Source: Thermoplasmata archaeon (GTDB lineage: Archaea; Thermoplasmatota; Thermoplasmata; Thermoplasmatales; GCA-001856825). Taken from it: a DNA stretch of 64,000 bases. The translations under genes and the position numbers were made by a program. Below the pieces are notes generated by a model that had not been told where the DNA came from, ran no database searches, and saw only the letters and a program-made list of their open reading frames with translations. The stretch is taken from assembly GCA_021792255.1 (NCBI GenBank), contig JAJYUZ010000001.1, positions 288,001-352,000 of the forward strand, written 5' to 3'. Of the stretch, positions 1 through 39,263 are shown in pieces (the first letter of the stretch is position 1; each line of letters opens with the position of its first letter).

Positions 1-3000
1 AGTGCAGAGGAAGTTAGAGCGTTAACTACATTGACCGTAATCGGTGAAGAGGTGCCGGTAATGCCAGTATTGTCGACCTCAGTCGCAACGACTACGAAAT
101 GCCACTCCCCTATTGTAGTAAGGCTACCCGTTCCGACCTTCTCTGGGAAGGTACTGAATTGAGTCGTTGTAGCTATAACAGAGAATGTCGTTGATCCCGG
201 AGCCTCAGCCTTTAGCTGCGCGGTGTAGGGTCCTGTTCCAGTTATGCTAGTGATGCTAATGTTGGTAGAAGTACCGCTATCCATAGTAGCCGCTGCCGAG
301 ATCGTGACGTTCAAGGAAGAATAGACTATGATAGGTTGAGAGTTCACAGAAATAGTGGCGACAGCGAAACCGCTGGCCCCCAATGAATCATTTACGTACA
401 GTTTGATTGTGAAGTTCCCGGTGTTCGTGAAATTGAACAGATTCCCGACGTGTGTTATTCCAGAACCACTAGGATACCCCCATCCGTATGTCGTGGGAGC
501 AGTCCCACCAGTACTCGAGTTGCTGAATGTCACGGAAGCACCTACGTCGATAGTGGCGGATGAGGGGGTGATCGTAACGGAAGGCAAGGTGTTTACGGTG
601 ATCGTCTTGGTAATGCTCGCCGTTTCACCTGCGGAGTCTTTTACCGTGGCGGTTACCGAGTAAATGCCGGCCTTTGTGAACGTGACCTTGTTCCCGGAAG
701 TTGAGTAATATCCGGAAGCTGAGCCAGAAGGGTAGAGAGTGACTGTCCAGCTGTACGAGTATGGAGGTACTCCGGCTCCAGAGGAGACAGTGACAGAGAT
801 CGCGAAGCCAACATCGGTCGTGGCTGGAGTAACAGTCAGTGACGAAGACGTCAGACTGCTTACGACCGTAACGGTGACCGAGGTTGTGGAACTGACGGTT
901 CCGGTCGAGTCGACCACCGTCACATAATATGTTGTGGTAGACGTCAGAGCGGGAGTCTTAAAAGGATTACCGCTGTAGAGAAGATTGGTCAACGCCGAAT
1001 TGGAATACCACTTGAAGGCGTAACCCACTCCCGTTCCTCCAGAGGCTGTGGCAGTAAGAGTCGCTGAAGATCCGCTGCCAACGGTCGTAGAGAGCACAGT
1101 CACCTTTGGATCAGAGTTTACGACGACCGAGGCCGAATTAGATTTCGCGGTGGAGAGTGGAGATGCACCAGAAGTTACTCCAGCATCGGTGAACACGAAG
1201 TAGTATGAGCCGTTGGATTGAGGATTGAAGGCATACGAAGCCACCTTGCCGGTACCTGACGTGACCAGGGAATTCGAAGAAGTATAGAGGGACCACGAGA
1301 AAGTTCCCGTACCTCCGTTCACAGTAGACGAAAGGGTCACTGACTGGCCTGCATCAACAATCGTTGATGTAGGTTGGACAGACACGGATAAGGAAGGATC
1401 TACGACCACGGACACAGTCGTGGAAAAGACGTACTGAGTGCTGTTGTCTGTCACATTGAGATATATCTTATATGCTCTAGCGGAGCTCCCCGCAAAGGAA
1501 TAACTTTTCTCCTTTCCGACGATCGCCGAGCTCCCTCCAATCGACCAGGAATAGGAGAAGGAGCCTGAGCCCCCACTGATGGAAGAGGTCAGGGATATGG
1601 TCTGACCAACATCTATCTGTGAGGAAGACGGTGTGATAGTAACGGTGGGTTGAGTGTTTACAGTTATGGTTGCCTGATTGGAAGTAGCGGTCGCAGCAGG
1701 AGTAGCACCCAAGGTTACTCCCGTGTCTGTGAAGACGAAGTAGTAGGATGTTGTAGTGGTGGGGGAGAGTTGGTAGGATGCTGTTGCCCCTGCCCCTGAA
1801 GCTACCACAGAATTCGAGGATGTGAAGAGAGACCATGAGAACGTCCCAGTTCCACCAGAGACTGTGGATGTAAGGGTGACGGATTGACCGGAGTCAATAG
1901 TCGAGGAAGTCGGCTGCACAGAGATCGCAGGAGCAGCATATACCGTGACTCTCGCTGTCGTAGAGAACACAAACGCTGAATAAGTCCCAGTATCGGTCAC
2001 GTTCAACCAGACCACATAGGTACCGGATGTGGCTTCCGAGAAAGAGACGGAGGTGGCGGTATTTACTATATTCATTGGATTGCCATTTACAGACCACGAA
2101 TAAATGAACTGAGCGGTTCCGCCAGAAACTGAAGAAGTAAGTGTAATAGATTGGCCAGAATCTATACTTGATATCGAAGGAGAAATGGTGACTGTCGGAA
2201 CAGAATCTACCGTGATTGATACCTCTGCCGGGGAAAGCTGATAATTTGGCGTTGTGCCAACATCTGTGACGTTGAGCCATACCACGAACGGACCCGCGGT
2301 AGTGCCATAGAATTTGTATGTGCTTCCGGTCCCGACTACCTTCGAGCTTCCGCCTATGCTCCAGAAGTATGAGAATTGTCCCGTTCCACCAGACGTAGAA
2401 GACGCCAGAGTTACGGACTGACCAGTGTCTAGCACAGCTGAAGATGGAGATACCGAGACCGTTGGGGCTAAAGTCACGGTGATGGTCGCAGAAGTAGAAG
2501 TTGCTGAAGCAACGGGAAAAGCCCCTGATGAAACACCGGTATCAATGAAGACGAAGTAGTAGGATGTTGTAGTGGCGGGGGAGAGTTGGTAGGACGCTGT
2601 TGCGCCAGTCCCTGAAGCTACCACGGAATTCGAGGATGTGAAGAGAGACCATGAGAACGTCCCAGTCCCACCAGAGACGGTGGATGTAAGGGTAACGGAT
2701 TGACCGGAATTTATTGACGTCGACTTGGGTTGAACGGAAATAGTGATCGCGGAATCGAGTGTCACTGACGCTTTAGAAGAGGTTGCAGTTAGGGACGGAG
2801 AGGCCCCTGAGGTCGTTCCAGTATCCGTGAACACTACATAGACTCCAGTATCCGCAGAAGAGAACGTCTGGGAAGCCGTAAGACCAGTGCCGGATGCTCC
2901 AGATATCTTACCAGAAGAATCGTACCACTGCCACGAAAACGAGCCAGTACCACCAACTGCTGTTGAGGTTATCGTGATGGACTGACCGGAGTCAATGGTC

Positions 3001-6000
3001 ACAGAGGATGGCTGAGAGGAGATAGAGGGAGCGGCGAAGACCGTGACGGTTATTGCCCCTGTCGTCGATGATTGTCCATCGCTTGAAGTGATTTGCAAGT
3101 AAAATAGATAGGTTCCCTTTCCGACCGGAGCGAAGAAGTGACTAATAGCAGTTCCCGAAGTGGCAGGACCGGATAGGCCAATCTTCGAACCGCCAGATGT
3201 ACCGTTAAGGTACCATTGATAAGAATACGGAAGTACCCCACCGCTTATGGTCGGGGTAACACTGAGGGATAAGCTCTGTCCAACGTCGAGAGATCCACTT
3301 CCAGAAGATGGGGTGTTTGTGACGAAAGTGACGCTCAGAGTCCCTGGATTTACCTGTACCGTCACGCTGACGGAAAGGGTGTATGGAGGCGTGGTGCCGA
3401 CATCGGTGACGTTTAGCCAGATTTTGTACGATCCAGTGGAAGACTCTGAAAAGGTGTAGGCGTTGGTCGTACTTACGACCGTTGTACTTCCACTTATCGT
3501 CCACGCATAAGTGTATTTACCACTACCGCCCGAAGTAGTCGAAGTGAAGGTCTGTGACTGCCCCAGAGTAAGGGTTGCTGAAGAGGGGCTCACGCTTGGC
3601 GACAATGGGGGATTGACGGAAACAGGTGCATTGCTTGAGGACAAGGTCGAAACGGGAGTCGCTCCAGAAGTGACTCCTGTGTCGGTGAAGACGAAGTAGT
3701 AGGATGTTGTAGTGGTGGGAGATAGCAAATATGATGCCTTTGATCCTGTCCCGGAAGCTACCAAAAAGTTTGAAGAGGTGTAGAGGGACCAGGAGTATGT
3801 TCCTGTTCCTCCAGTAACGGTGGATGTAAGAGTTATGGACTGACCCGAATCTATCGTTCCGGAAAGAGGCTGCACCGATATTGAAAGAGCAGAGTCCAGT
3901 GTTACTGTCACCACCGAGGATTTTACCATTGAAGAAGGTGTCGCAACTGAACTGGTTCCGGTATCTGTGAACACAACGTATATGCCGGTGTCTCCACTGC
4001 TAAACGTCGCAGTTGCGACCGACCCAGTTCCAGAGTCTCCCGTTATCGGCCCGCTAGAGTCGTACCACTGCCACGAATATTTCCCAGTTCCACCAGAGAC
4101 TGTGGAGGTCGGAGAAATGGATTGTCCGCTGTCTATTGTCGCAGAGGTTGGCTGACTGGAAATTGAAAGTGCCGATTCGACCGTTATCGTTACAGAAACT
4201 GGTGAGAAAGCGTAGTTGGGCGTCGTTCCAGTATCCGTGACGTTGAGCCACACTTTGTAAGTGTCCGGGGTCGCTAGCGAGAATGTGTATGAGGGACTCT
4301 GACCTACTACCGTCGAACTGCCGTTGATGCTCCAAGAATAAGCGAAGGATCCAGATCCTCCTGAGACCGTCGAAACCAATGCTACAGACTGGCCCGCATC
4401 TATTACTGCGGAAGACGGCGTCACGGTAACTGTTGGAGCACTGTTGACTGTAACTGTCGCGGAGTTTGACTTAGCAGTCGCAATCGGAGTCGCGCCAGAT
4501 GAAACCCCTGTGTCGGTGAATACGAAGTAGTAGGATGTTGTAGTGGCGGGGGAGAGTTGGTAGGACGCTGTTGCGCCAGTCCCTGACGCGACTCGGGTGT
4601 TTAGAGACGTGTAGAGGGACCACGAGAAAGTTCCCGTTCCACCAGAGACGGTGGATGTAAGGGTAACTGACTGACCGGAGTTGATAGTAAATGACGAAGG
4701 CTGCGTAGAAACAGTCAGGGAATTGTCGACTGTGACGGCCACATTTGAAGAACTCGCCGTTGCTGCGGGAGAGGCCCCTGAGGTCGTTCCAGTATCCGTG
4801 AACACTACATAGACTCCAGTATCCGCAGAAGAGAACGTCTGGGAAGCTGTAAGACCAGTGCCGGATGCTCCAGATATCTTACCAGAAGAATCGTACCACT
4901 GCCACGAAAACGAGCCAGTACCACCAACTGCTGTTGAGGTTATCGTGATGGACTGACCGGAGTCAATGGTCACAGAGGATGGCTGAGAGGAGATAGAGGG
5001 AGAGACATAGACGGTGAGGGATGCGGTAGAAGAGAAGGTATATGACGTAATGCTATCTGTAACCGTTAGAACCACTCTGTAGGTTCCACTCGTGGTTTGT
5101 GTAAACGAATAGGAAGACTTGGTTCCCAGAACGGTAGAACTACTTCCGATAGTCCAGGAATATGAGAATGAACCAGACCCCCCGTTTACTGATGATGTCA
5201 AGAGCAAGGATTGTGAGGTATCAACAATCGCTGATGATGGAGAGACAGTAACCGTCGGGACGGTGTATACTGTTATGGTTGCCTGATTGGAAGTAGCGGT
5301 CGCAGCAGGAGTAGCACCCAAGGTTACTCCCGTGTCTGTGAAGACGAAGTAGTAGGATGTTGTAGTGGTGGGGGAGAATTGATAGGATGCTGTAGCTCCT
5401 GTACCTGAATTAATAAGGGAGTTCGAAGAGGTATAGAGAGACCATGAGAAAGTTCCGGTCCCACCAGAGACGGTGGAAGTGAGCGTGATTGTCTGGCCCG
5501 CATCTATAGACCCCGAAGAAGGTTGAACAGAAATTGACAGCGATCCGTCGACCACAACGGAGACCGTGGAAGAGGCGACTGTAGCAGTCGGAGAGGCTCC
5601 CGAGGTGGTTCCAGTATCCGTGAACACTACATAGACTCCAGTATCCGCAGAAGAGAACGTCTGGGAAGCCGTAAGACCAGTGCCGGATGCTCCAGATATC
5701 TTACCAGAAGAATCGTACCACTGCCACGAAAATGGACCTGTCCCATCGACAGCTGTAGATGTGATCGTTATAGATTCACCCGAATCGATTGTAGCGGACT
5801 TAGGTTGAACAGACACGGACGGATAGACATTCACAGCGATCGGAACTTTTGCCGAAACGACAAGAGGCGAATAGGTACCGGTATCGGTGACGTTGAGCCA
5901 CACCGTATAAGTTCTGGCGGAAGATTCTGTGAAGGAGAAAGTGGATGAAGTTCCGACTACGCTGGGACTTCCTCCGATGGTCCAGGAGTATGAATAGAGA

Positions 6001-9000
6001 CCAGAACCTCCATTCACGGTCGCTGTTAGAAGCAAGCTCTGGGACAAGTCTATGGTGGCAGAAGCCGGAGAAACGCTGACGGTTGGAGAAGAGTCCACAG
6101 TTATTGTAATAGAAACCGGCGAAAGCGAATAATCAGGTGATGTGCCGGTGTCTGTGACGTTGAGCCACACTTTGTAGGTTCCAGCTGTATCTTCGGTGAA
6201 TGATAAGGTCGTTGCAGTCCCGACCACTACCTGACTACCACCGATCGTCCATGAATACGAAAATGAGCCAGATCCACCACTAACAGAAGACGACAGAACC
6301 AGCGACTGGGATGTATCGATCGTTGGAGAACTGGGTAAGAGCGAAACGATTGGTAATTGGTTTTCCTTTACTACAGCTCCATTCGTGGTGACACTTTGGC
6401 CAGATGAATCTTTGAAAACAACATAGTAAGTACCGTTTTGAGTGGGGGTGTAAGTCGAAGTTGCACCACTACCAGAACTACCGGAGATTGCAACTCCGCT
6501 CCCCGGTGACCCAGAGTACCATTGCCAAGTGTACGATCCGCTTCCGTACTCGACAGTTGTTGTTAGAGTTATGAATACCTGGCCGGGATCTATAGAATAT
6601 GACTGGGGTTGAACTTGAACTGTAAGGGGTGACACGACCGTTACCGTTAAAGAAGAACTGACTATGGAGCTAGCTGCGTCCTCAACGCTCAGTGTCACTA
6701 TATAATTGCCTGTTGATGTAAAGGTAAAGGTGTTGCCTGGGTTGCTGGATTGTGTCCATCCCGTGGATGGGGAAACCGAATAAGAGTATGTGTAAGGCTC
6801 AGTTCCTCCCTGAGTAATGTTTGTAAACGTTATGGAACTACCCGCGCCTACCTGAGTACCAACAGGAGAGGACAGCGAAACGGAGAGTTCAGGATTTACA
6901 GTAATTGTCACAGGAGCCGAGGTGGCGACCTTGGAAGTGCTGTCCGTGATCTCAAACTCAAATGCCCACGTTCCGGTAGTTGTGAGAATCCCCGTCGATA
7001 CCGATGCCGCCGAAAGATCGGTGGGGCTGATATAGAATTGATTGGTTAAGTTCAAAAATGAAGACGCTAAAGGAGGTTCTTCCAGCCATTGACCTTTGTA
7101 GGGCGTTATTCCTCCTCCAACTGAAGTCAGAATGAGAGTGGCGGACTGTCCGCTGTCTAGGGTAGTCAGTCCCGACACGGATATCGTCGCACTGAGCAGG
7201 GAATTGATAGTGACAGTCTCCGTCAGGGATGCTGTCACTCCGTTTGCATCAGTTACGGTAACTGTGACTGTGTAGGTACCTGGCGTGTTGAAAACTATCT
7301 GGTTCCCTGTTGTGCTGTAATCCCCAGGAGCGGGTTGGCCAGAAGAAGTCGTCACTGCCCATGAATAACTGAATGGCGCAACTCCATATCCCGACTCGAC
7401 GGTCGCATTAATCGGACTTCCGACTGTCGTGATCGTAGGAGAGATCGAAATTGCGGATGAAGTTAGTGGCTGTGACGGGTGAAGGACTATTATCTCAGCC
7501 GTCGCAACTATGGCAAGACCATCGTCGCCATCCTCATCGTTGTTTGGGGGGGTATTCCCAACGTGATTATTTACAAAGAGGTAAAGATAATAAATGCCGT
7601 AACTCGATGGAATGTAGGTGAAACTTGCACTTGGCTGCGAAGTAGAATTCACGCTGTTAAATGACCTGAATCCTTGCTGCCAGTGAGGGAAATTTGTCGT
7701 GACGTACCACACGTAGGTATACGGCGAAATTCCTCCAGTCCAGTTTGCATTAAAGTTCAAGATTTCACCGATGTTCGAGTCCACTGTAGTCGGGGTCAGG
7801 GTTACCTGACTCACGGTGGGTTCCGGGTTCTTCTTAGAATCCACCTGTGAGACTGCCATCACATAGGCCGCAGAACTAGTACTGTCGACAAACAAATAAA
7901 CGTAATATCTACCATTATCGGAAGGAACAAAACTGAAAGTCGCAGAGTTCTTGCTCGTGTAATTGTATGAGTTAAATTGCAAAATGTATGGAGTCTGAAT
8001 AGTGTCCTTATGTGTGACCATCCAAACATAGGAGTAGGGTGCTGTTCCCCCCGTCCAGTTGCCAGTGAAGATTATCGGGACTCCCGCTTCCGAGTTAGCG
8101 TTGACCGAACTTGGCGATATCGTAAGAGATGAGACTCCTGGTGTTCCCGGCATTAGTACTATCTGAGCGTACGCAACAAGTGAATCCTGCTGGTAGCTGG
8201 AGCCGGGGCCCGTCGACGGGGTGACATAGAGATATAGGTAGAATATTCCGTACGATCCATACTGGGGATTGAAAGTGAAACTCGTGGAAGTATCTGTAGT
8301 GACGTTGTAGTTGTCAATCTGGTTTTTGTCACCCTTGTAATATAACTTCCACTGATTCTGGTCGGTAGTCACGACCCACGCATAATTATAAACATTAGAG
8401 CTTCCCGTCCAGTTCCCGACAAACGTTATTGGGCGGCCTAGATACATTACGGTAGTCGAAGGGGCTAGTGTCACGTTTTGTAGAGAGTACTGATTGTTCT
8501 TGTCTTTGTGACTCTGAGGTTGTTGTTGGACTGAAATGACCGCGCCAGCGCTGAGCCCACTGCCAGAGGTAGATCCATTAACGGTTAGGCTTATGAGGTA
8601 TGTATTAGGATGGTCAGGAGTAAAGTTGAAGTCTGCCGAGTTTAAAGAGCTAGAGTTGTTATAATAACTGGCGTACACTCTATCGGAAGAGGTCTGAGTC
8701 ACATTCCAAACATAACTGTAGGGAGATTGTCCACCAGACCAGACCGCCTTGAGTTCGAGCGTTTGACCTACATATAAGTTGGAAGATGTGGGAGAGAGAG
8801 TGATAGAAGTAAGAGAGTAACTCTGAGTTACGTTAAACGTACTCCCTGAGCCGTGCGTGTCCATCGAGGTGGAATAATTTCTACCAACGGTAGCAGCAGA
8901 AAAACTAGAGAACTTCTCCAAAAGCGTGTTCGTCTGAGAAGATAAATTTCTTGATCCTAGAGAGGCACCGGAGGATTGACCTGCACCGGAAGAAGAACTG

Positions 9001-9257
9001 CTCAAATAACTTCCTGAGGCAGTTGCTGGGGCAGGCCAAGTCTTTACTACCTTCCCATTTTGTACATCCTCGAAATAACTAGAATTCTGACCTCCCACTG
9101 TCGTGGTAACGAGATAAATGTGACCGCCGCTCGAGCCTGACGAAGCTGCAGTGTTAGATGAGTAAAAGGCACTCGAAAATGACGTTGAAAGCATCAAGAA
9201 AACTACTGCTACGGCTATCCCTACCATGAATCCTTTTGCGAACTTTCTGGTTATCAA
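1..9257 (-). CDS. Giant Ser/Thr-rich cell-surface protein (>3,080 aa, 3' end outside window) made of tandem ~90-aa Ig/PKD-like modules
   Basis: Manual translation. TTG at 9257 (alternative ATG at 9227) gives LITRKFAKGFMVGIAVAVVFLMLSTSFSSA, a signal-peptide-like start. The same frame reads GEWHFVVVATEVDNTGITGTSSPITVNVVNALTSSA at the window start. Repeating modules look like SISSQPSSVTIDSGQSITITSTAVGGTGSFSWQWYDSSG...YVVFTDTG. It is absent from the ORF track, consistent with no stop before the edge. Confidence 0.92.
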   Translation of the reverse strand, partial: MITRKFAKGFMVGIAVAVVFLMLSTSFSSAFYSSNTAASSGSSGGHIYLVTTTVGGQNSSYFEDVQNGKVVKTWPAPATASGSYLSSSSSGAGQSSGASLGSRNLSSQTNTLLEKFSSFSAATVGRNYSTSMDTHGSGSTFNVTQSYSLTSITLSPTSSNLYVGQTLELKAVWSGGQSPYSYVWNVTQTSSDRVYASYYNNSSSLNSADFNFTPDHPNTYLISLTVNGSTSGSGLSAGAVISVQQQPQSHKDKNNQYSLQNVTLAPSTTVMYLGRPITFVGNWTGSSNVYNYAWVVTTDQNQWKLYYKGDKNQIDNYNVTTDTSTSFTFNPQYGSYGIFYLYLYVTPSTGPGSSYQQDSLVAYAQIVLMPGTPGVSSLTISPSSVNANSEAGVPIIFTGNWTGGTAPYSYVWMVTHKDTIQTPYILQFNSYNYTSKNSATFSFVPSDNGRYYVYLFVDSTSSAAYVMAVSQVDSKKNPEPTVSQVTLTPTTVDSNIGEILNFNANWTGGISPYTYVWYVTTNFPHWQQGFRSFNSVNSTSQPSASFTYIPSSYGIYYLYLFVNNHVGNTPPNNDEDGDDGLAIVATAEIIVLHPSQPLTSSAISISPTITTVGSPINATVESGYGVAPFSYSWAVTTSSGQPAPGDYSTTGNQIVFNTPGTYTVTVTVTDANGVTASLTETVTINSLLSATISVSGLTTLDSGQSATLILTSVGGGITPYKGQWLEEPPLASSFLNLTNQFYISPTDLSAASVSTGILTTTGTWAFEFEITDSTSKVATSAPVTITVNPELSVSLSSPVGTQVGAGSSITFTNITQGGTEPYTYSYSVSPSTGWTQSSNPGNTFTFTSTGNYIVTLSVEDAASSIVSSSLTVTVVSPLTVQVQPQSYSIDPGQVFITLTTTVEYGSGSYTWQWYSGSPGSGVAISGSSGSGATSTYTPTQNGTYYVVFKDSSGQSVTTNGAVVKENQLPIVSLLPSSPTIDTSQSLVLSSSVSGGSGSFSYSWTIGGSQVVVGTATTLSFTEDTAGTYKVWLNVTDTGTSPDYSLSPVSITITVDSSPTVSVSPASATIDLSQSLLLTATVNGGSGLYSYSWTIGGSPSVVGTSSTFSFTESSARTYTVWLNVTDTGTYSPLVVSAKVPIAVNVYPSVSVQPKSATIDSGESITITSTAVDGTGPFSWQWYDSSGKISGASGTGLTASQTFSSADTGVYVVFTDTGTTSGASPTATVASSTVSVVVDGSLSISVQPSSGSIDAGQTITLTSTVSGGTGTFSWSLYTSSNSLINSGTGATASYQFSPTTTTSYYFVFTDTGVTLGATPAATATSNQATITVYTVPTVTVSPSSAIVDTSQSLLLTSSVNGGSGSFSYSWTIGSSSTVLGTKSSYSFTQTTSGTYRVVLTVTDSITSYTFSSTASLTVYVSPSISSQPSSVTIDSGQSITITSTAVGGTGSFSWQWYDSSGKISGASGTGLTASQTFSSADTGVYVVFTDTGTTSGASPAATASSSNVAVTVDNSLTVSTQPSSFTINSGQSVTLTSTVSGGTGTFSWSLYTSLNTRVASGTGATASYQLSPATTTSYYFVFTDTGVSSGATPIATAKSNSATVTVNSAPTVTVTPSSAVIDAGQSVALVSTVSGGSGSFAYSWSINGSSTVVGQSPSYTFSLATPDTYKVWLNVTDTGTTPNYAFSPVSVTITVESALSISSQPTSATIDSGQSISPTSTVSGGTGKYSWQWYDSSGPITGDSGTGSVATATFSSGDTGIYVVFTDTGTSSVATPSSMVKSSVVTVTLDSALSISVQPLSGTIDSGQSITLTSTVTGGTGTYSWSLYTSSNFLVASGTGSKASYLLSPTTTTSYYFVFTDTGVTSGATPVSTLSSSNAPVSVNPPLSPSVSPSSATLTLGQSQTFTSTTSGGSGKYTYAWTISGSTTVVSTTNAYTFSESSTGSYKIWLNVTDVGTTPPYTLSVSVTVQVNPGTLSVTFVTNTPSSGSGSLDVGQSLSLSVTPTISGGVLPYSYQWYLNGTSGGSKIGLSGPATSGTAISHFFAPVGKGTYLFYLQITSSDGQSSTTGAITVTVFAAPSISSQPSSVTIDSGQSITITSTAVGGTGSFSWQWYDSSGKISGASGTGLTASQTFSSADTGVYVVFTDTGTTSGASPSLTATSSKASVTLDSAITISVQPKSTSINSGQSVTLTSTVSGGTGTFSWSLFTSSNSVVASGTGATASYQLSPATTTSYYFVFIDTGVSSGAFPVASATSTSATITVTLAPTVSVSPSSAVLDTGQSVTLASSTSGGTGQFSYFWSIGGSSKVVGTGSTYKFYGTTAGPFVVWLNVTDVGTTPNYQLSPAEVSITVDSVPTVTISPSISSIDSGQSITLTSSVSGGTAQFIYSWSVNGNPMNIVNTATSVSFSEATSGTYVVWLNVTDTGTYSAFVFSTTARVTVYAAPAISVQPTSSTIDSGQSVTLTSTVSGGTGTFSWSLFTSSNSVVASGAGATASYQLSPTTTTSYYFVFTDTGVTLGATPAATATSNQATITVNTQPTVTITPSSSQIDVGQTISLTSSISGGSGSFSYSWSIGGSSAIVGKEKSYSFAGSSARAYKIYLNVTDNSTQYVFSTTVSVVVDPSLSVSVQPTSTIVDAGQSVTLSSTVNGGTGTFSWSLYTSSNSLVTSGTGKVASYAFNPQSNGSYYFVFTDAGVTSGASPLSTAKSNSASVVVNSDPKVTVLSTTVGSGSSATLTATASGGTGVGYAFKWYSNSALTNLLYSGNPFKTPALTSTTTYYVTVVDSTGTVSSTTSVTVTVVSSLTSSSLTVTPATTDVGFAISVTVSSGAGVPPYSYSWTVTLYPSGSASGYYSTSGNKVTFTKAGIYSVTATVKDSAGETASITKTITVNTLPSVTITPSSATIDVGASVTFSNSSTGGTAPTTYGWGYPSGSGITHVGNLFNFTNTGNFTIKLYVNDSLGASGFAVATISVNSQPIIVYSSLNVTISAAATMDSGTSTNISITSITGTGPYTAQLKAEAPGSTTFSVIATTTQFSTFPEKVGTGSLTTIGEWHFVVVATEVDNTGITGTSSPITVNVVNALTSSA
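1663..1768. repeat. 106-bp direct repeat (partner 5272-5377) inside the giant surface gene
   Basis: gttatggttgcctgattggaagtagcggtcgcagcagg...gtggtgggggaga is identical at both positions by eye. Confidence 0.88.
2551..3031. repeat. Intragenic duplicated two-module block, copy 1 (partner 4522-5002; partial third copy 5608-5732)
   Basis: 2797-3031 matches 4768-5002 with one mismatch seen (gccgta/gctgta). 2551-2615 matches 4522-4586. Both are at a constant offset of 1971 nt. Confidence 0.9.
4522..5002. repeat. Intragenic duplicated two-module block, copy 2
   Basis: Direct repeat of 2551-3031 with patchy near-identity. Confidence 0.9.
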
Positions 9258-9623
9258 TCGCTTGCATAGTTCAAGAAGGTATAAAAACATTTATATTGAA
9301 TAAGGGAGATGTAAGTGTACTTAAATTTGTGTTTGAGCTCGTATTAGACGGGCTCTCTGGAATGAAGTGAATTATGCTTATTTAATAGCATTATTGACAA
9401 ACTGAAATTCCGTTCTAACTATCAAACTTTTTTTGGAAAAAATCAAATCGATTAGTGGAGCTTATTCGACAAAAGATGTACTGCAAGTAAAACTATTGTC
9501 AGTAATTGCTGTGCGCGGTGGACCGCTTCCTATCAGATTTGTAGACTCTGGAGAGAGTATATCTGCCAACCGGTTCTAACGTCTCTTGGCCAAACTTAAA
9601 TATTATACATGCTATCTACGAGC
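9258..9623. promoter_or_regulatory. Divergent promoter region for the two large surface-protein genes
   Basis: AT-rich intergenic region. Minus-strand TTTTTAT at 9287-9281 lies about 25 nt before TTG 9257. Plus-strand TTAAATA at 9596-9602 lies about 22 nt before GTG 9624. Confidence 0.55.
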
Positions 9624-36785: not shown

Positions 36786-39263
36786 ATGACGCGGAAATTA
36801 CTCGTCTTTTTGGTGCTTGTGATTTCAGTCGTAATGCTCGTGCCTGGCATTTCGATGCTCCAAAATTCTCACGCACCTACGGCCATAAAAACGCCTTCTA
36901 TCACGTCGGTCAGTCCCGCCGGTCTCGGAACAAACATCGTAAGCAGCCCACCAACCACGTATAAGCACTATTTCCCACCGAACTTCAATGCAAGGACTAA
37001 GGAAGTTAATGGTGTTGTGACGCCTCTGTACTCGACAAGCCCTGCTCCAATGGGAGTTGGTTCATGGGGAATCACCAACAATTCTGGTGCGATTACTGGA
37101 TATGTTCTCAACACATCAAGTTTTGAGGGGACTGCGGTTCTAAACAATCTTACGACGGTAGACTTGACGAACGACGGACCTGATCAGTACACGATGCAGC
37201 TCAATACGATATTAAGAAACGTTACGCTCTTTGGGAATTCGAGCTTCGTCTTCTGGAATCAGAATGTAGTTCTCTACACGGCACACAATCACACTCTGAC
37301 TTTCGAAGACAATATTTGGAATTTCACTAGCTCTTCTTTCCTTATGAATAATAACACCTTTTACAGCTATGATGGCAACCTTATTGCTCCATACTATTAC
37401 TACGCAGTCGGACCCTCCCTGTCAGTGAGTTACCCATTCACCGTTCACCTTTTCCTCAATTCTACCATGATAAACAACAGAGATGCAGTTTTCTTCAATT
37501 ACTCAGTAATTTCTTCTAACGGGACATACACAGGTTCCTATGACAGAGTCATTTTCAACAGCACCTACGGAATGCCTTCGACTTTCAGTACTCCTACTGC
37601 ATACTACCAGATAAACGGATTCCAAGTCACCCCTAACGGGTTTTTGCCATATGACGCAGAACTCATGATAGGAGGACCTGGAGGAGGAAGTACGACAAAC
37701 GTATTCTCCATAAACGGTACTATGACCTTATCATACCTTCCATCCGGATCAACGACCAGCCAGTACATTTCTGTGCCTTCCGCATATGACTTTGGAACGG
37801 ACACTGGTGAGACAGCATCCGGCATTGCAGAATGGTGGACTGGAAATACCGTTCACTTAGGTACGGGACCTTCCTTACTCTATCCAATGTGGAATATATC
37901 TTCGAATTCGGGGTACCAGACCTTGTCCGGTACTGTGACTCCGTCCAATTCGTTTATCTTCATGAGCAATGGGACGTTCAGTGATCCTTATGCAGCTTGG
38001 GCTCCGGTCAACAATGATGGATCGTTCAATTATCAGCTTGCTCCTGGAATTTACTCTGGAAGGGTTCTGATGAGCGACTATGTTCCTCAGAATTTCTCAT
38101 TCACTTCATCCGCATCCGTGAGCATATCTCTTGTGAAGAACACTGCAAAGGGCATCTACACACCTCTGGTCGCTATGAACAACCAGCAACTCCAGTATAT
38201 CTCTTCGAGCGGAAATGGTACCCAGGGCAACCCTTACGTGATTGAAAACAACCAGTACTTTGCCATAGATCCTCTGTTCTGGGAATGGAATGACTATCTC
38301 TTCCCTGTGTTCTCCGGTATATTGCTTGTGGACACCAGCGCATATGTGCTGATATCGCATGCAGCGCCATTCCTGATATACTATCCATCCTTCACGTACC
38401 CGGTTTTGGACTATTACGGCCTTCCAACCTATAACTTCATGCCAACGGAACTCTACGGCACTTCGCACGTTTCTATAATGAACAGTCAGTATACGGGATG
38501 GTTCCCTTCGGCTTTCCAGTCAACCTACGGTTATCCGGTGATAGGAAATGTAATCACTTGGAATGCCTCTTCTACTCTGATAGCAAACAATGACTTCCTC
38601 GATATGGGCGCCTCAGTTACTGTATATGGAGGATCAGGCAACCTGATCTGGGGGAACTATTTTGAGCAGAGTGAGCCGATCGCACCAGCTGGTTTACTTG
38701 CGTTCGGACCCGATCCGATTGGACTGACAATATATTCTTCGGACAACACGATATTCAACAACAATTTCTACGTTCTTATCACGACCTTGTCTCCTGCGTA
38801 CAACATATACAACGGAGCAACAACGCTCTATAACAACACCTGGAATGTCACGGCTGAGCCTTCTACAACCGCCACAGCGTTCAACGGTCAGTCTCTATCA
38901 GGCAGCGTAGTGGACAATGGTTACGTCTCTGGAAACGTCTACTGGGATGAAATCCCAGGACAGCCTTACAACGATTCTGGATTCGTCGCCAGCGGCTATG
39001 ATTATTCACCGGTCGTTCCGAATGTGTACAACGTCACAGTAACGTTAAACAACCTCAAACCCGGAATGACGGCAAACGTATATCTCGTCCAGGATAGTCA
39101 GTACCAATATCTTTTCGAGAACTCGGGTACCTCCACTGTGACAGTTCCGACTTTCAACGGAACTTACTTCATTGTAGTCGTTGCCCAGGGACAGTTCTAC
39201 TTCGATTACAAACAGACAGTAACAGTCAACGGAAACTCAGTAGCAGTCACAATAAACCTTTGA
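36786..39263 (+). CDS. Thermopsin (peptidase A5) family secreted acid protease with beta-helix-like C-terminal region
   Basis: PAPMGVGSWG, MQLNTIL, FWNQNV, DNIWNFT, DAELMIGGPGGG, PSAYDFGTDTGET; SGNGTQGNPYVI. Confidence 0.93.
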   Translation: MTRKLLVFLVLVISVVMLVPGISMLQNSHAPTAIKTPSITSVSPAGLGTNIVSSPPTTYKHYFPPNFNARTKEVNGVVTPLYSTSPAPMGVGSWGITNNSGAITGYVLNTSSFEGTAVLNNLTTVDLTNDGPDQYTMQLNTILRNVTLFGNSSFVFWNQNVVLYTAHNHTLTFEDNIWNFTSSSFLMNNNTFYSYDGNLIAPYYYYAVGPSLSVSYPFTVHLFLNSTMINNRDAVFFNYSVISSNGTYTGSYDRVIFNSTYGMPSTFSTPTAYYQINGFQVTPNGFLPYDAELMIGGPGGGSTTNVFSINGTMTLSYLPSGSTTSQYISVPSAYDFGTDTGETASGIAEWWTGNTVHLGTGPSLLYPMWNISSNSGYQTLSGTVTPSNSFIFMSNGTFSDPYAAWAPVNNDGSFNYQLAPGIYSGRVLMSDYVPQNFSFTSSASVSISLVKNTAKGIYTPLVAMNNQQLQYISSSGNGTQGNPYVIENNQYFAIDPLFWEWNDYLFPVFSGILLVDTSAYVLISHAAPFLIYYPSFTYPVLDYYGLPTYNFMPTELYGTSHVSIMNSQYTGWFPSAFQSTYGYPVIGNVITWNASSTLIANNDFLDMGASVTVYGGSGNLIWGNYFEQSEPIAPAGLLAFGPDPIGLTIYSSDNTIFNNNFYVLITTLSPAYNIYNGATTLYNNTWNVTAEPSTTATAFNGQSLSGSVVDNGYVSGNVYWDEIPGQPYNDSGFVASGYDYSPVVPNVYNVTVTLNNLKPGMTANVYLVQDSQYQYLFENSGTSTVTVPTFNGTYFIVVVAQGQFYFDYKQTVTVNGNSVAVTINL

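Follow-up and report, generated by a model that had tools for sequence, protein, structure and literature searches.

A probable surface fibre of 4,600 residues in an I-plasma-group Thermoplasmata archaeon, and a conserved A-run in its gene

Giant adhesins made of immunoglobulin (Ig)-like repeats, such as SiiE, LapA and MpIBP, are exported by type I secretion and have RTX repeats as well as a retention module at the N terminus. Here, we describe a protein of similar outline (P0002), whose gene starts on the minus strand of a 64,000-nucleotide stretch of a Thermoplasmata archaeon genome (GCA_021792255.1, contig JAJYUZ010000001.1, C3:288001-352000). This whole stretch is referred to as the window, and coordinates without a contig or locus name are positions in it. 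We suggest that the protein is a glycosylated, membrane-anchored, adhesin-like surface fibre of an acidophilic archaeon of the I-plasma group, a reading that we consider quite probable. As in SiiE, LapA and MpIBP, several thousand residues would form an extracellular rod of tens of beta-sandwich modules, with the distal end far from the cell and a variable number of modules. Unlike them, the archaeal giant has a putative Sec-type signal and a C-terminal transmembrane (TM) anchor. No RTX or hemolysin-type calcium-binding domain is matched by Pfam in the giant protein at E ≤0.01 and the C terminus is a TM helix with a basic tail, so it is not a type I-secreted RTX adhesin. Entry 4p99, seen in the results of the PDB searches, we take to be region II of MpIBP.

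The second comparison is with the SprB/CHU_C-associated Ig proteins of Bacteroidota, which use the type IX secretion system (T9SS). Their modules are related in sequence to those of the giant protein (Ig_7 and a weak SprB repeat match), and proteins named 'gliding motility-associated-like' or 'T9SS type B sorting domain' are among its matches. However, the Bacteroidota matches end in the PF13585 sorting domain. P0002 has no Pfam match to PF13585 and has a TM helix at its end instead, and membership of the SprB/CHU_C type was rejected.

In archaea, surface proteins with PKD and YVTN modules have reportedly been described from Methanosarcina mazei, by Jing et al. in 2002. Like these, and like the surface proteins of the Mia14 Micrarchaeon in the excerpts of PMC5498576, the system studied here is archaeal and combines PKD/Ig-like modules with a YVTN propeller, the latter in the neighbouring protein P0003. 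Compared by description, the M. mazei and Mia14 proteins are much shorter, and the stalk module and tail motif reported below are not described in those excerpts. Literature searches found no description of the giant protein in the partial texts that they covered, with supplements (including the S-layer gene list of PMC3750248) lying outside the search. Giant archaeal surface fibres are a known kind of protein. What is new here is the combination of an Ig array with an uncatalogued stalk and a conserved tail motif and, above all, a conserved A-run at which the gene is split throughout one clade.

The giant gene and its product

The window belongs to a genome of 1,587,011 bp in 11 contigs, 93.55% complete. 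The minus-strand frame 3..9290 translates to 3,096 residues without a stop and is open at its 3' end at the left window edge. It extends 1,504 codons further to the left, to a stop at C3:283488, and the whole open reading frame (ORF) thus has 4,600 residues (C3:283488-297290, no N). This is the largest ORF in the genome, the next having 2,040 residues, and it occupies 0.87% of the DNA. The predicted product has a mass of 474 kDa (unglycosylated) and an isoelectric point (pI) of 4.6.

The frame 3..9290 (-) is listed solely when open-ended ORFs are allowed and is therefore missing from the ordinary ORF list. An earlier note, made from the letters of the window, had nevertheless proposed a minus-strand frame of about 30 tandem modules running from a start at 9257 to the window edge, and had dismissed the small listed ORFs as shadows of it. 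Most of this proposal stands. No in-frame stop is found from 9257 to 1, and the three listed ORFs of at least 100 residues, 355..663(+), 1477..1836(-) and 1894..2280(-), all lie inside the giant ORF in other frames. A profile made from one module counts 31 modules in the window part (residues 163-3096), and the repeat motif given in the note matches the central modules. The leftward extension that it proposed leads to five stalk modules, a TM helix, a basic tail and the stop. The start is the part to be revised. Position 9257 is an in-frame TTG, while the longest ORF begins at the ATG at 9290, and judged from the orthologs 9290 is more likely since P0007, P0008 and P0053 all retain its 'MFLY'.

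The internal modules show dN/dS ratios of 0.13-0.36 and orthologs exist; this is more than expected from a chance ORF and confirms a real gene. The dN/dS values come from paralogous modules at dS 0.18-1.9. Against the ortholog in genome G002 the proportion of synonymous differences, pS, is 0.79 (saturated), pN is 0.18-0.22 and pN/pS is 0.23-0.27. Both comparisons, read from coding sequences, show purifying selection on the giant gene, within as well as between species.

Over the whole protein, the one-module profile gives 42 modules, each 86-120 residues long, at residues 163-4139. In the central array, modules 9-27, three subtypes recur as a three-module unit, and identities reach 89% in amino acids and range over 63-91% in nucleotides. 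Tandem Repeats Finder detected no repeat in the giant gene, because the super-repeat of ~830 nt exceeds its limit and adjacent modules are too diverged. After the Ig modules, a profile search finds the five stalk modules, of ~80 residues each, at residues 4141-4545. They are followed by the C-terminal TM helix (hydropathy 3.39) and a basic tail of 22 residues, nine of them K or R. Only one other ORF of the genome, the gene directly downstream of the giant gene, shares the tail motif 'S[LF]F.R[DE]G'. Ser and Thr make up 33.6% of the protein and its sole Cys lies in the signal peptide. There are 85 N-X-S/T sequons, i.e. 1.85 per 100 residues compared to a background of 0.73.

At the N terminus, the motif 'SFSGA/SSA-FY' of the signal peptide is retained across orthologs, and we read the signal as Sec-type and putatively cleaved. 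A class III (type IV pilin-like) signal peptide was rejected by eye: the 'AKG-F' of P0002 is not kept (the orthologs have K or another residue), and the conserved site is the later 'SGA-F'. Archaeosortase processing of the PGF-CTERM type was also rejected. PF09721 (archaeosortase) is not found in the one genome concerned (0/1; own genome, 93.6% complete) while the control genome was matched, a scan of the giant protein with NCBIfam gives no CTERM model and nothing above cut-off, and the 22-residue tail extends beyond the helix.

The modules were described in the earlier note as beta-rich and Ig/PKD-like, and both Pfam and the structure predictions agree. In Pfam, Ig_3 (PF13927) scores 227.7 bits against a cut-off of 30, PKD_3 (PF16820) 128.6 against 26.3 and PKD_4 (PF18911) 78.5 against 27, while Ig_7 and PKD are likewise above their cut-offs. 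The AlphaFold2 (AF2) model of module 14, with the 42 modules as alignment, is a beta-sandwich of nine strands with the Ig fold and a predicted local distance difference test score (pLDDT) of 84.3. Compared using VIA, this model matches Ig domains of Tyro3, NCAM and ICAM at Z 9.8-9.6. The best matches, Tyro3 and NCAM, have a root-mean-square deviation of 2.0-2.4 Å over 79-86 residues, and 83 chains are found at Z ≥8. The Ig module matches the phage Ig-like protein 9ncf (E 1e-26), the PKD domains of KIAA0319L and phage decoration proteins in a PDB profile search.

The stalk module is a different domain. Its AF2 model, from an alignment of 22 repeats in which W25 and G49 are invariant and which shows a 'GLP..GT.W' repeat, is all-beta with pLDDT 86.5. 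VIA gives at best Z ≤7.4, to the anthrax TIE protein, CBM20, CnaB2 and pilin domains, and the stalk profile weakly matches a 'SpaA-like prealbumin fold' protein (E 2.7e-4). Foldseek against PDB has no row at E ≤1e-3 for the Ig-module or the stalk-module model; a stalk-module row to SlaA/SlaB is weak, at E 0.13. Given these Z-scores and the lack of a Foldseek row at E ≤1e-3, the predicted model supports only a prealbumin/CnaB/CBM20-like beta-sandwich and nothing finer. The stalk module has no match above cut-off in Pfam, yet its profile finds 7,609 representative clusters at E ≤1e-3 and 2,982 at E ≤1e-30. As far as these profile searches go, it is a very large domain family without a catalogue entry.

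Orthologs of the giant protein are found within the genus. A query of the N-terminal 620 residues matches 10 of 17 same-genus genomes, five of them at E <1e-200, and none of 12 genomes from other families of the order. The full-length orthologs in the database have 3,462-4,035 residues, and one further ortholog of 2,714 residues is N-terminally incomplete. They are collinear with the giant protein at both ends and differ in the central array, to which the length differences can be traced. Among the genomes searched, such collinear orthologs (~3,460-4,600 residues) are confined to the same genus. A database protein with the source name 'Thermoplasmatales archaeon I-plasma' is 100% identical over 700 residues to the copy in genome G012; the window genome and that organism are therefore of one genus. 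In their source names, all archaeal relatives are either 'hypothetical' or without a name.

Outside this group, the more distant giants P0011, P0012 and P0014 retain the stalk and the anchor, and further matches are Ig arrays with other ends, including the T9SS proteins of Bacteroidota. A search of the genome collection with the whole protein found one distant locus, in a metagenome-assembled genome of a 'Thermoplasmata archaeon', with 35% identity. A metagenome scan with the junction region gave 23 loci and no ortholog across the junction; the best of them (L033) is an unrelated PKD array.

It could be argued that such a gene is an assembly artefact or a decaying pseudogene, as the assembly is a repeat-rich metagenome one, the G012 copy is frameshifted and the G002 copy is split. 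However, there are zero stops in 4,600 codons, selection is purifying within and between species, and the orthologs are collinear. Most repeat units differ by 9-37% in DNA. Further, contigs of four runs from three studies, labelled as mine drainage, sediment and mine tailings metagenomes, reproduce L008:3300-9000, i.e. the C-terminal 5.7 kb or third of the gene, with no differences reported; one of the four may be the source of this DNA. Weak joints and loose ends in this comparison stem from related organisms that co-occur. An artefact or a pseudogene is therefore very improbable.

We propose the following picture of the fibre. The Sec signal would export a 474-kDa type I membrane protein and be cleaved off, and the single C-terminal TM helix with its conserved basic cytoplasmic tail would hold the protein in the membrane. 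This anchoring would be permanent, given that an archaeosortase was not found in the 93.6% complete genome. The five prealbumin-like stalk modules would raise the chain off the membrane, and the 42 Ig-like modules would form a flexible, Cys-free, Ser/Thr- and sequon-rich fibre. It is probably heavily glycosylated, where N-glycosylation in particular is suggested by the sequon excess. With ~4 nm per domain, a general domain size, the fibre would have a length of the order of 150-200 nm. The central three-module super-repeat would set this length and vary it between species. The likeliest job would be long-range adhesion or surface spacing in acid-mine biofilms, i.e. cell-cell, cell-matrix or cell-mineral contact. 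The earlier note had called the protein a very long adhesin or surface filament. The long extracellular beta-sandwich array with its anchor fits this description, while adhesion itself, like export, glycosylation and extension, is what we infer.

The same features could also belong to a coat, i.e. an S-layer-like or glycocalyx protein that shields a weakly walled acidophile and is not an adhesin. The protein is anchored, acidic (pI 4.6), Cys-free and sequon-rich, and next to its gene lie those of two further anchored proteins with the stalk module. According to the excerpts of PMC3750248, the 'plasma' cells of acid mines have surface layers and I-plasma has putative S-layer genes. However, 474 kDa greatly exceeds the 40-200 kDa given for S-layer proteins in an excerpt of a preprint, and the number of modules varies between species, which suits a fibre better than a lattice. 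At E ≤0.01, Pfam gives no S-layer family and the PDB profile searches give no characterised S-layer protein, although S-layer proteins are so diverse that this is no exclusion. Taken together, a coat protein appears unlikely.

Several points weigh against the interpretation as a fibre of 42 modules. Its evidence consists of DNA sequence and predicted structures, the signal peptide and the TM helix are assigned from hydropathy and conservation alone, and Pfam recognises no ligand-binding tip domain. The count in the central array comes from one short-read metagenome assembly, the independent contigs covering the C-terminal third. One pair of central units is 91% identical in DNA, and 36 modules are counted in P0004, the closest relative; the true number may therefore differ from 42. 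Finally, a single frameshift interrupts a central module of the G012 reference copy, at L056:6213-6631 (G012:C1), leaving frames of 1,703 and 3,060 residues. Joined, these two frames give ~4,620 residues, and the database sequence P0066 reads through the frameshift site; the frameshift may be an assembly error or a strain variant.

Relatives of the modules in other archaea

The earlier note had also remarked that the style of the modules recalls giant proteins of Micrarchaeota, and had raised a host-symbiont role or gene exchange. When a query of three modules was compared with shorter proteins, 158 matches were obtained among 7,999 scored candidates. The named ones are Thermoplasmat*, Bathyarchaeia, Nitrososphaerota and three with Micrarchaeota labels. 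Related modules are thus present under the Micrarchaeota label. P0068, which lies on the longest contig with this label (74 kb), has 42% identity over 93% of the query, or 34-54% per module. However, the closer matches are labelled Thermoplasmat* or Bathyarchaeia or carry no label; a fragment labelled Bathyarchaeia has 63-71% identity per module.

The labels themselves are a problem. The two partial proteins P0072 and P0120 have modules that are 94-100% identical, while they are labelled Micrarchaeaceae and Nitrososphaerota, respectively, on contigs of only 4.2 kb and 2.6 kb. At least one label must therefore be wrong, and the labels of short contigs are unreliable. In a FastTree of 170 modules (76 columns) the labels interleave and 73 of 165 inner branches are unresolved. 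The phylogeny of modules against Thermoplasmata and Micrarchaeota proposed in the note shows neither recent exchange nor a host-symbiont role. Judged from these module sequences, the module type is common to archaea of such habitats, and exchange is possible.

From this it could be speculated that the host contacts Micrarchaeota (DPANN) episymbionts through the giant protein, or that the protein was exchanged with them. The Micrarchaeota-labelled proteins share the module type at E 1e-79 and below, and a set of 29 modules mixes I-plasma-group, Micrarchaeota-labelled, Bathyarchaeia-labelled and unlabelled modules. The excerpts of PMC5498576 report PKD/YVTN surface proteins in a cultured Micrarchaeon and infer that some of them come from acidophilic euryarchaea. 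The identities per module of P0068, the closer relatives under other labels, the conflicting labels of the short contigs and the poor resolution of the tree all speak against it, and we find this alternative improbable.

The best shorter match to the three-module unit is P0049, a protein of 1,275 residues on a contig of 3.05 Mb, with 54% identity at 100% coverage. In the module tree its modules group with the central subtypes.

An A-run in the longest linker

The array is interrupted by one long non-module linker, the only one in the protein, between modules 34 and 35 (~residues 3375-3400, 74% into the coding sequence). In this linker lies a run of nine A (A9) at C3:287117-287125, 880 nt left of the window, which forms part of codons 3388-3391 (CAA AAA AAA ACA). 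The linker varies freely in the seven aligned read-through orthologs and only 'QKKT[FL]' is kept. At the nucleotide level the conservation is stronger: a run of at least nine A is found as an identical 'GC-A9-CAT' in five species (G000, G014, G012, G009 and G006), where the preceding 55 nt barely align, and as A10 in a sixth, G002. Within the species studied here the length of the run is constant across contigs of three studies. With one A fewer or one A more in the mRNA, translation would end after 10 or 6 further codons, respectively, with an anchor-less product of ~342 kDa.

In G002, the A10 splits the gene. The upstream ORF stops seven codons after the run, and the downstream frame continues without a stop over 1,266 codons into a normal TM anchor and tail. 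This frame has a pN/pS of 0.27 and no ATG, GTG or TTG for 95 codons past the run. Six database clusters with 47 member sequences, which share 75-88% identity among themselves and with G002, end at the identical point, and no read-through sequence is found within this A10 clade of six clusters and G002.

One explanation is programmed slippage, in which RNA polymerase or the ribosome would shift at the A9 or A10 in a fraction of events. An anchored form of 4,600 residues and a released form of ~3,400 residues would then be made, and in the A10 clade the protein would be anchored only via slippage. This would supplement the explanation as a surface fibre and does not replace it. The position of the run argues for slippage, as it sits in the only long non-module linker and encodes the sole invariant motif there. 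The identity of 'GC-A9-CAT' in five species is kept despite saturated synonymous sites. The codons used go against the preference of the gene, where AAG makes up 66% and CAG 61% and the two other KK pairs are AAGAAG; under this codon usage the observed A9 codons have P ~0.01 per lineage. The genome is also poor in such runs, with 14 A/T runs of at least nine, four of them inside ORFs of at least 150 residues and two of these within 30 nt of the ORF start. In G002, the downstream frame is intact and under constraint in spite of the split and the missing start, and the whole A10 clade ends at one place.

There are precedents in the literature. The excerpts of PMC1088944 describe slippage at an A9 in Thermus thermophilus dnaX and slippage also in Shigella mxiE, and those of PMC5009743 describe archaeal shift sites of the form A_AAA_AAR. 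As in dnaX, the A9 lies late in the coding sequence and a shorter by-product would arise from the in-frame form. As in mxiE, the long product of the out-of-frame form would depend on slippage. Unlike both, the present case concerns an archaeon and a surface fibre, not a replication or regulatory protein, and slippage is suggested by the DNA.

However, the support consists of contigs, which hide variants in tract length, and the five A9 species are related and not independent draws. There may be a protein-level reason to keep the KK pair, e.g. processing at this site. The A10 may reflect a recent loss of function or a homopolymer that is systematically miscalled, and the more distant orthologs G008 and G004 are without the run. 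Slippage of archaeal RNA polymerase on A9 is not documented in the material from PMC1088944 and PMC5009743. We therefore put slippage forward tentatively, as a possibility with somewhat less than even chances. Phase variation of the DNA at the run fits worse than a use at the RNA or translation level and is less likely, since the run does not change in length inside a clade.

In this genome, a single further homopolymer of nine lies deep inside an ORF of at least 150 residues, a T9 on the plus strand at C9:62201-62209, in the ORF C9:61967-63127 (+).

The locus and its meaning

The coordinates of the features are collected in Table 1. A/T-rich, TATA-like stretches are seen by eye ~30 nt upstream of the ATG at 9290. 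The divergent neighbour P0003 has 13 matches to the stalk profile, a PEGA domain, a C-terminal TM helix and a basic tail. Its YVTN beta-propeller is at ~residues 897-1167 (TIGR02276, 79.5 bits against a cut-off of 27.85). Since partial matches to the stalk profile flank it on both sides, at residues 848-924 and 1179-1245, a stalk module may contain the propeller as an insertion, in the manner of 'plug-in' adhesins.

On the other side of the giant gene, the paralog of 864 residues has a signal peptide, two to three Ig modules, seven stalk modules and the anchor and tail motif of the giant protein. The order of the giant gene and this paralog recurs in G002 and G012. In the whole genome, the stalk module is found in ten ORFs, including 36786-39263 (+) in the window, and the Ig module in only two. 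The other neighbours are housekeeping genes, including eRF1 and other archaeal genes. Just past the paralog lies a gene for a KaiC/RecA-type ATPase (PF06745, E 8e-32) at C3:280002-280658 (L008:2-658) (+).

Table 1. Features of the giant gene and its surroundings, in window positions unless a contig (C3) or locus (L008) is given.
Feature	Position	Strand	Basis
Window part of the giant gene, codons 1-3096	3..9290	-	ORF list, translation
Putative signal peptide, residues 1-42: basic n-region, hydrophobic core, c-region SSA-F	9165..9290	-	hydropathy 2.19, ortholog conservation
Ser/Gly-rich distal region, residues 43-162, before the first module	8805..9164	-	no Pfam match above cut-off
Modules 1-8, residues 163-981: diverged Ig-like, 87-118 residues, collinear with orthologs	6348..8804	-	module profile
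Modules 9-27, residues 982-2728: central array, three subtypes, super-repeat of ~277 residues	1107..6347	-	module profile, pairwise identity
Modules 28-31, residues 2729-3096, collinear with orthologs	3..1106	-	module profile
Codons 3097-4600: modules 32-42, A9 linker, five stalk modules, TM helix, basic tail	C3:283488-288002	-	left extension
Stalk modules	L008:3656-4870	-	stalk profile
Paralog of 864 residues, directly downstream, same strand	C3:280719-283313 (L008:719-3313)	-	ORF and profiles
Intergenic region of 318 nt between the giant gene and the divergent neighbour	9291..9608		sequence read by eye
P0003, divergent neighbour, 1,523 residues	9609..14180	+	signal peptide, stalk modules, propeller, PEGA, TM helix, basic tail

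Little or no wall surrounds the cells of this group, whose habitats have a very low pH, and their cover is poorly known. A single gene that takes up 0.87% of a 1.6-Mb genome and is under selection must matter for life in acid-mine biofilms. The giant protein is a concrete candidate for the fibres that join these cells to each other, to minerals or to episymbionts. If slippage at the A-run is true, a cellular gene of an archaeon would be recoded here, which is rare and can be tested. The A-run would then also be a simple switch between a giant adhesin tethered on the cell and one released into the biofilm matrix.

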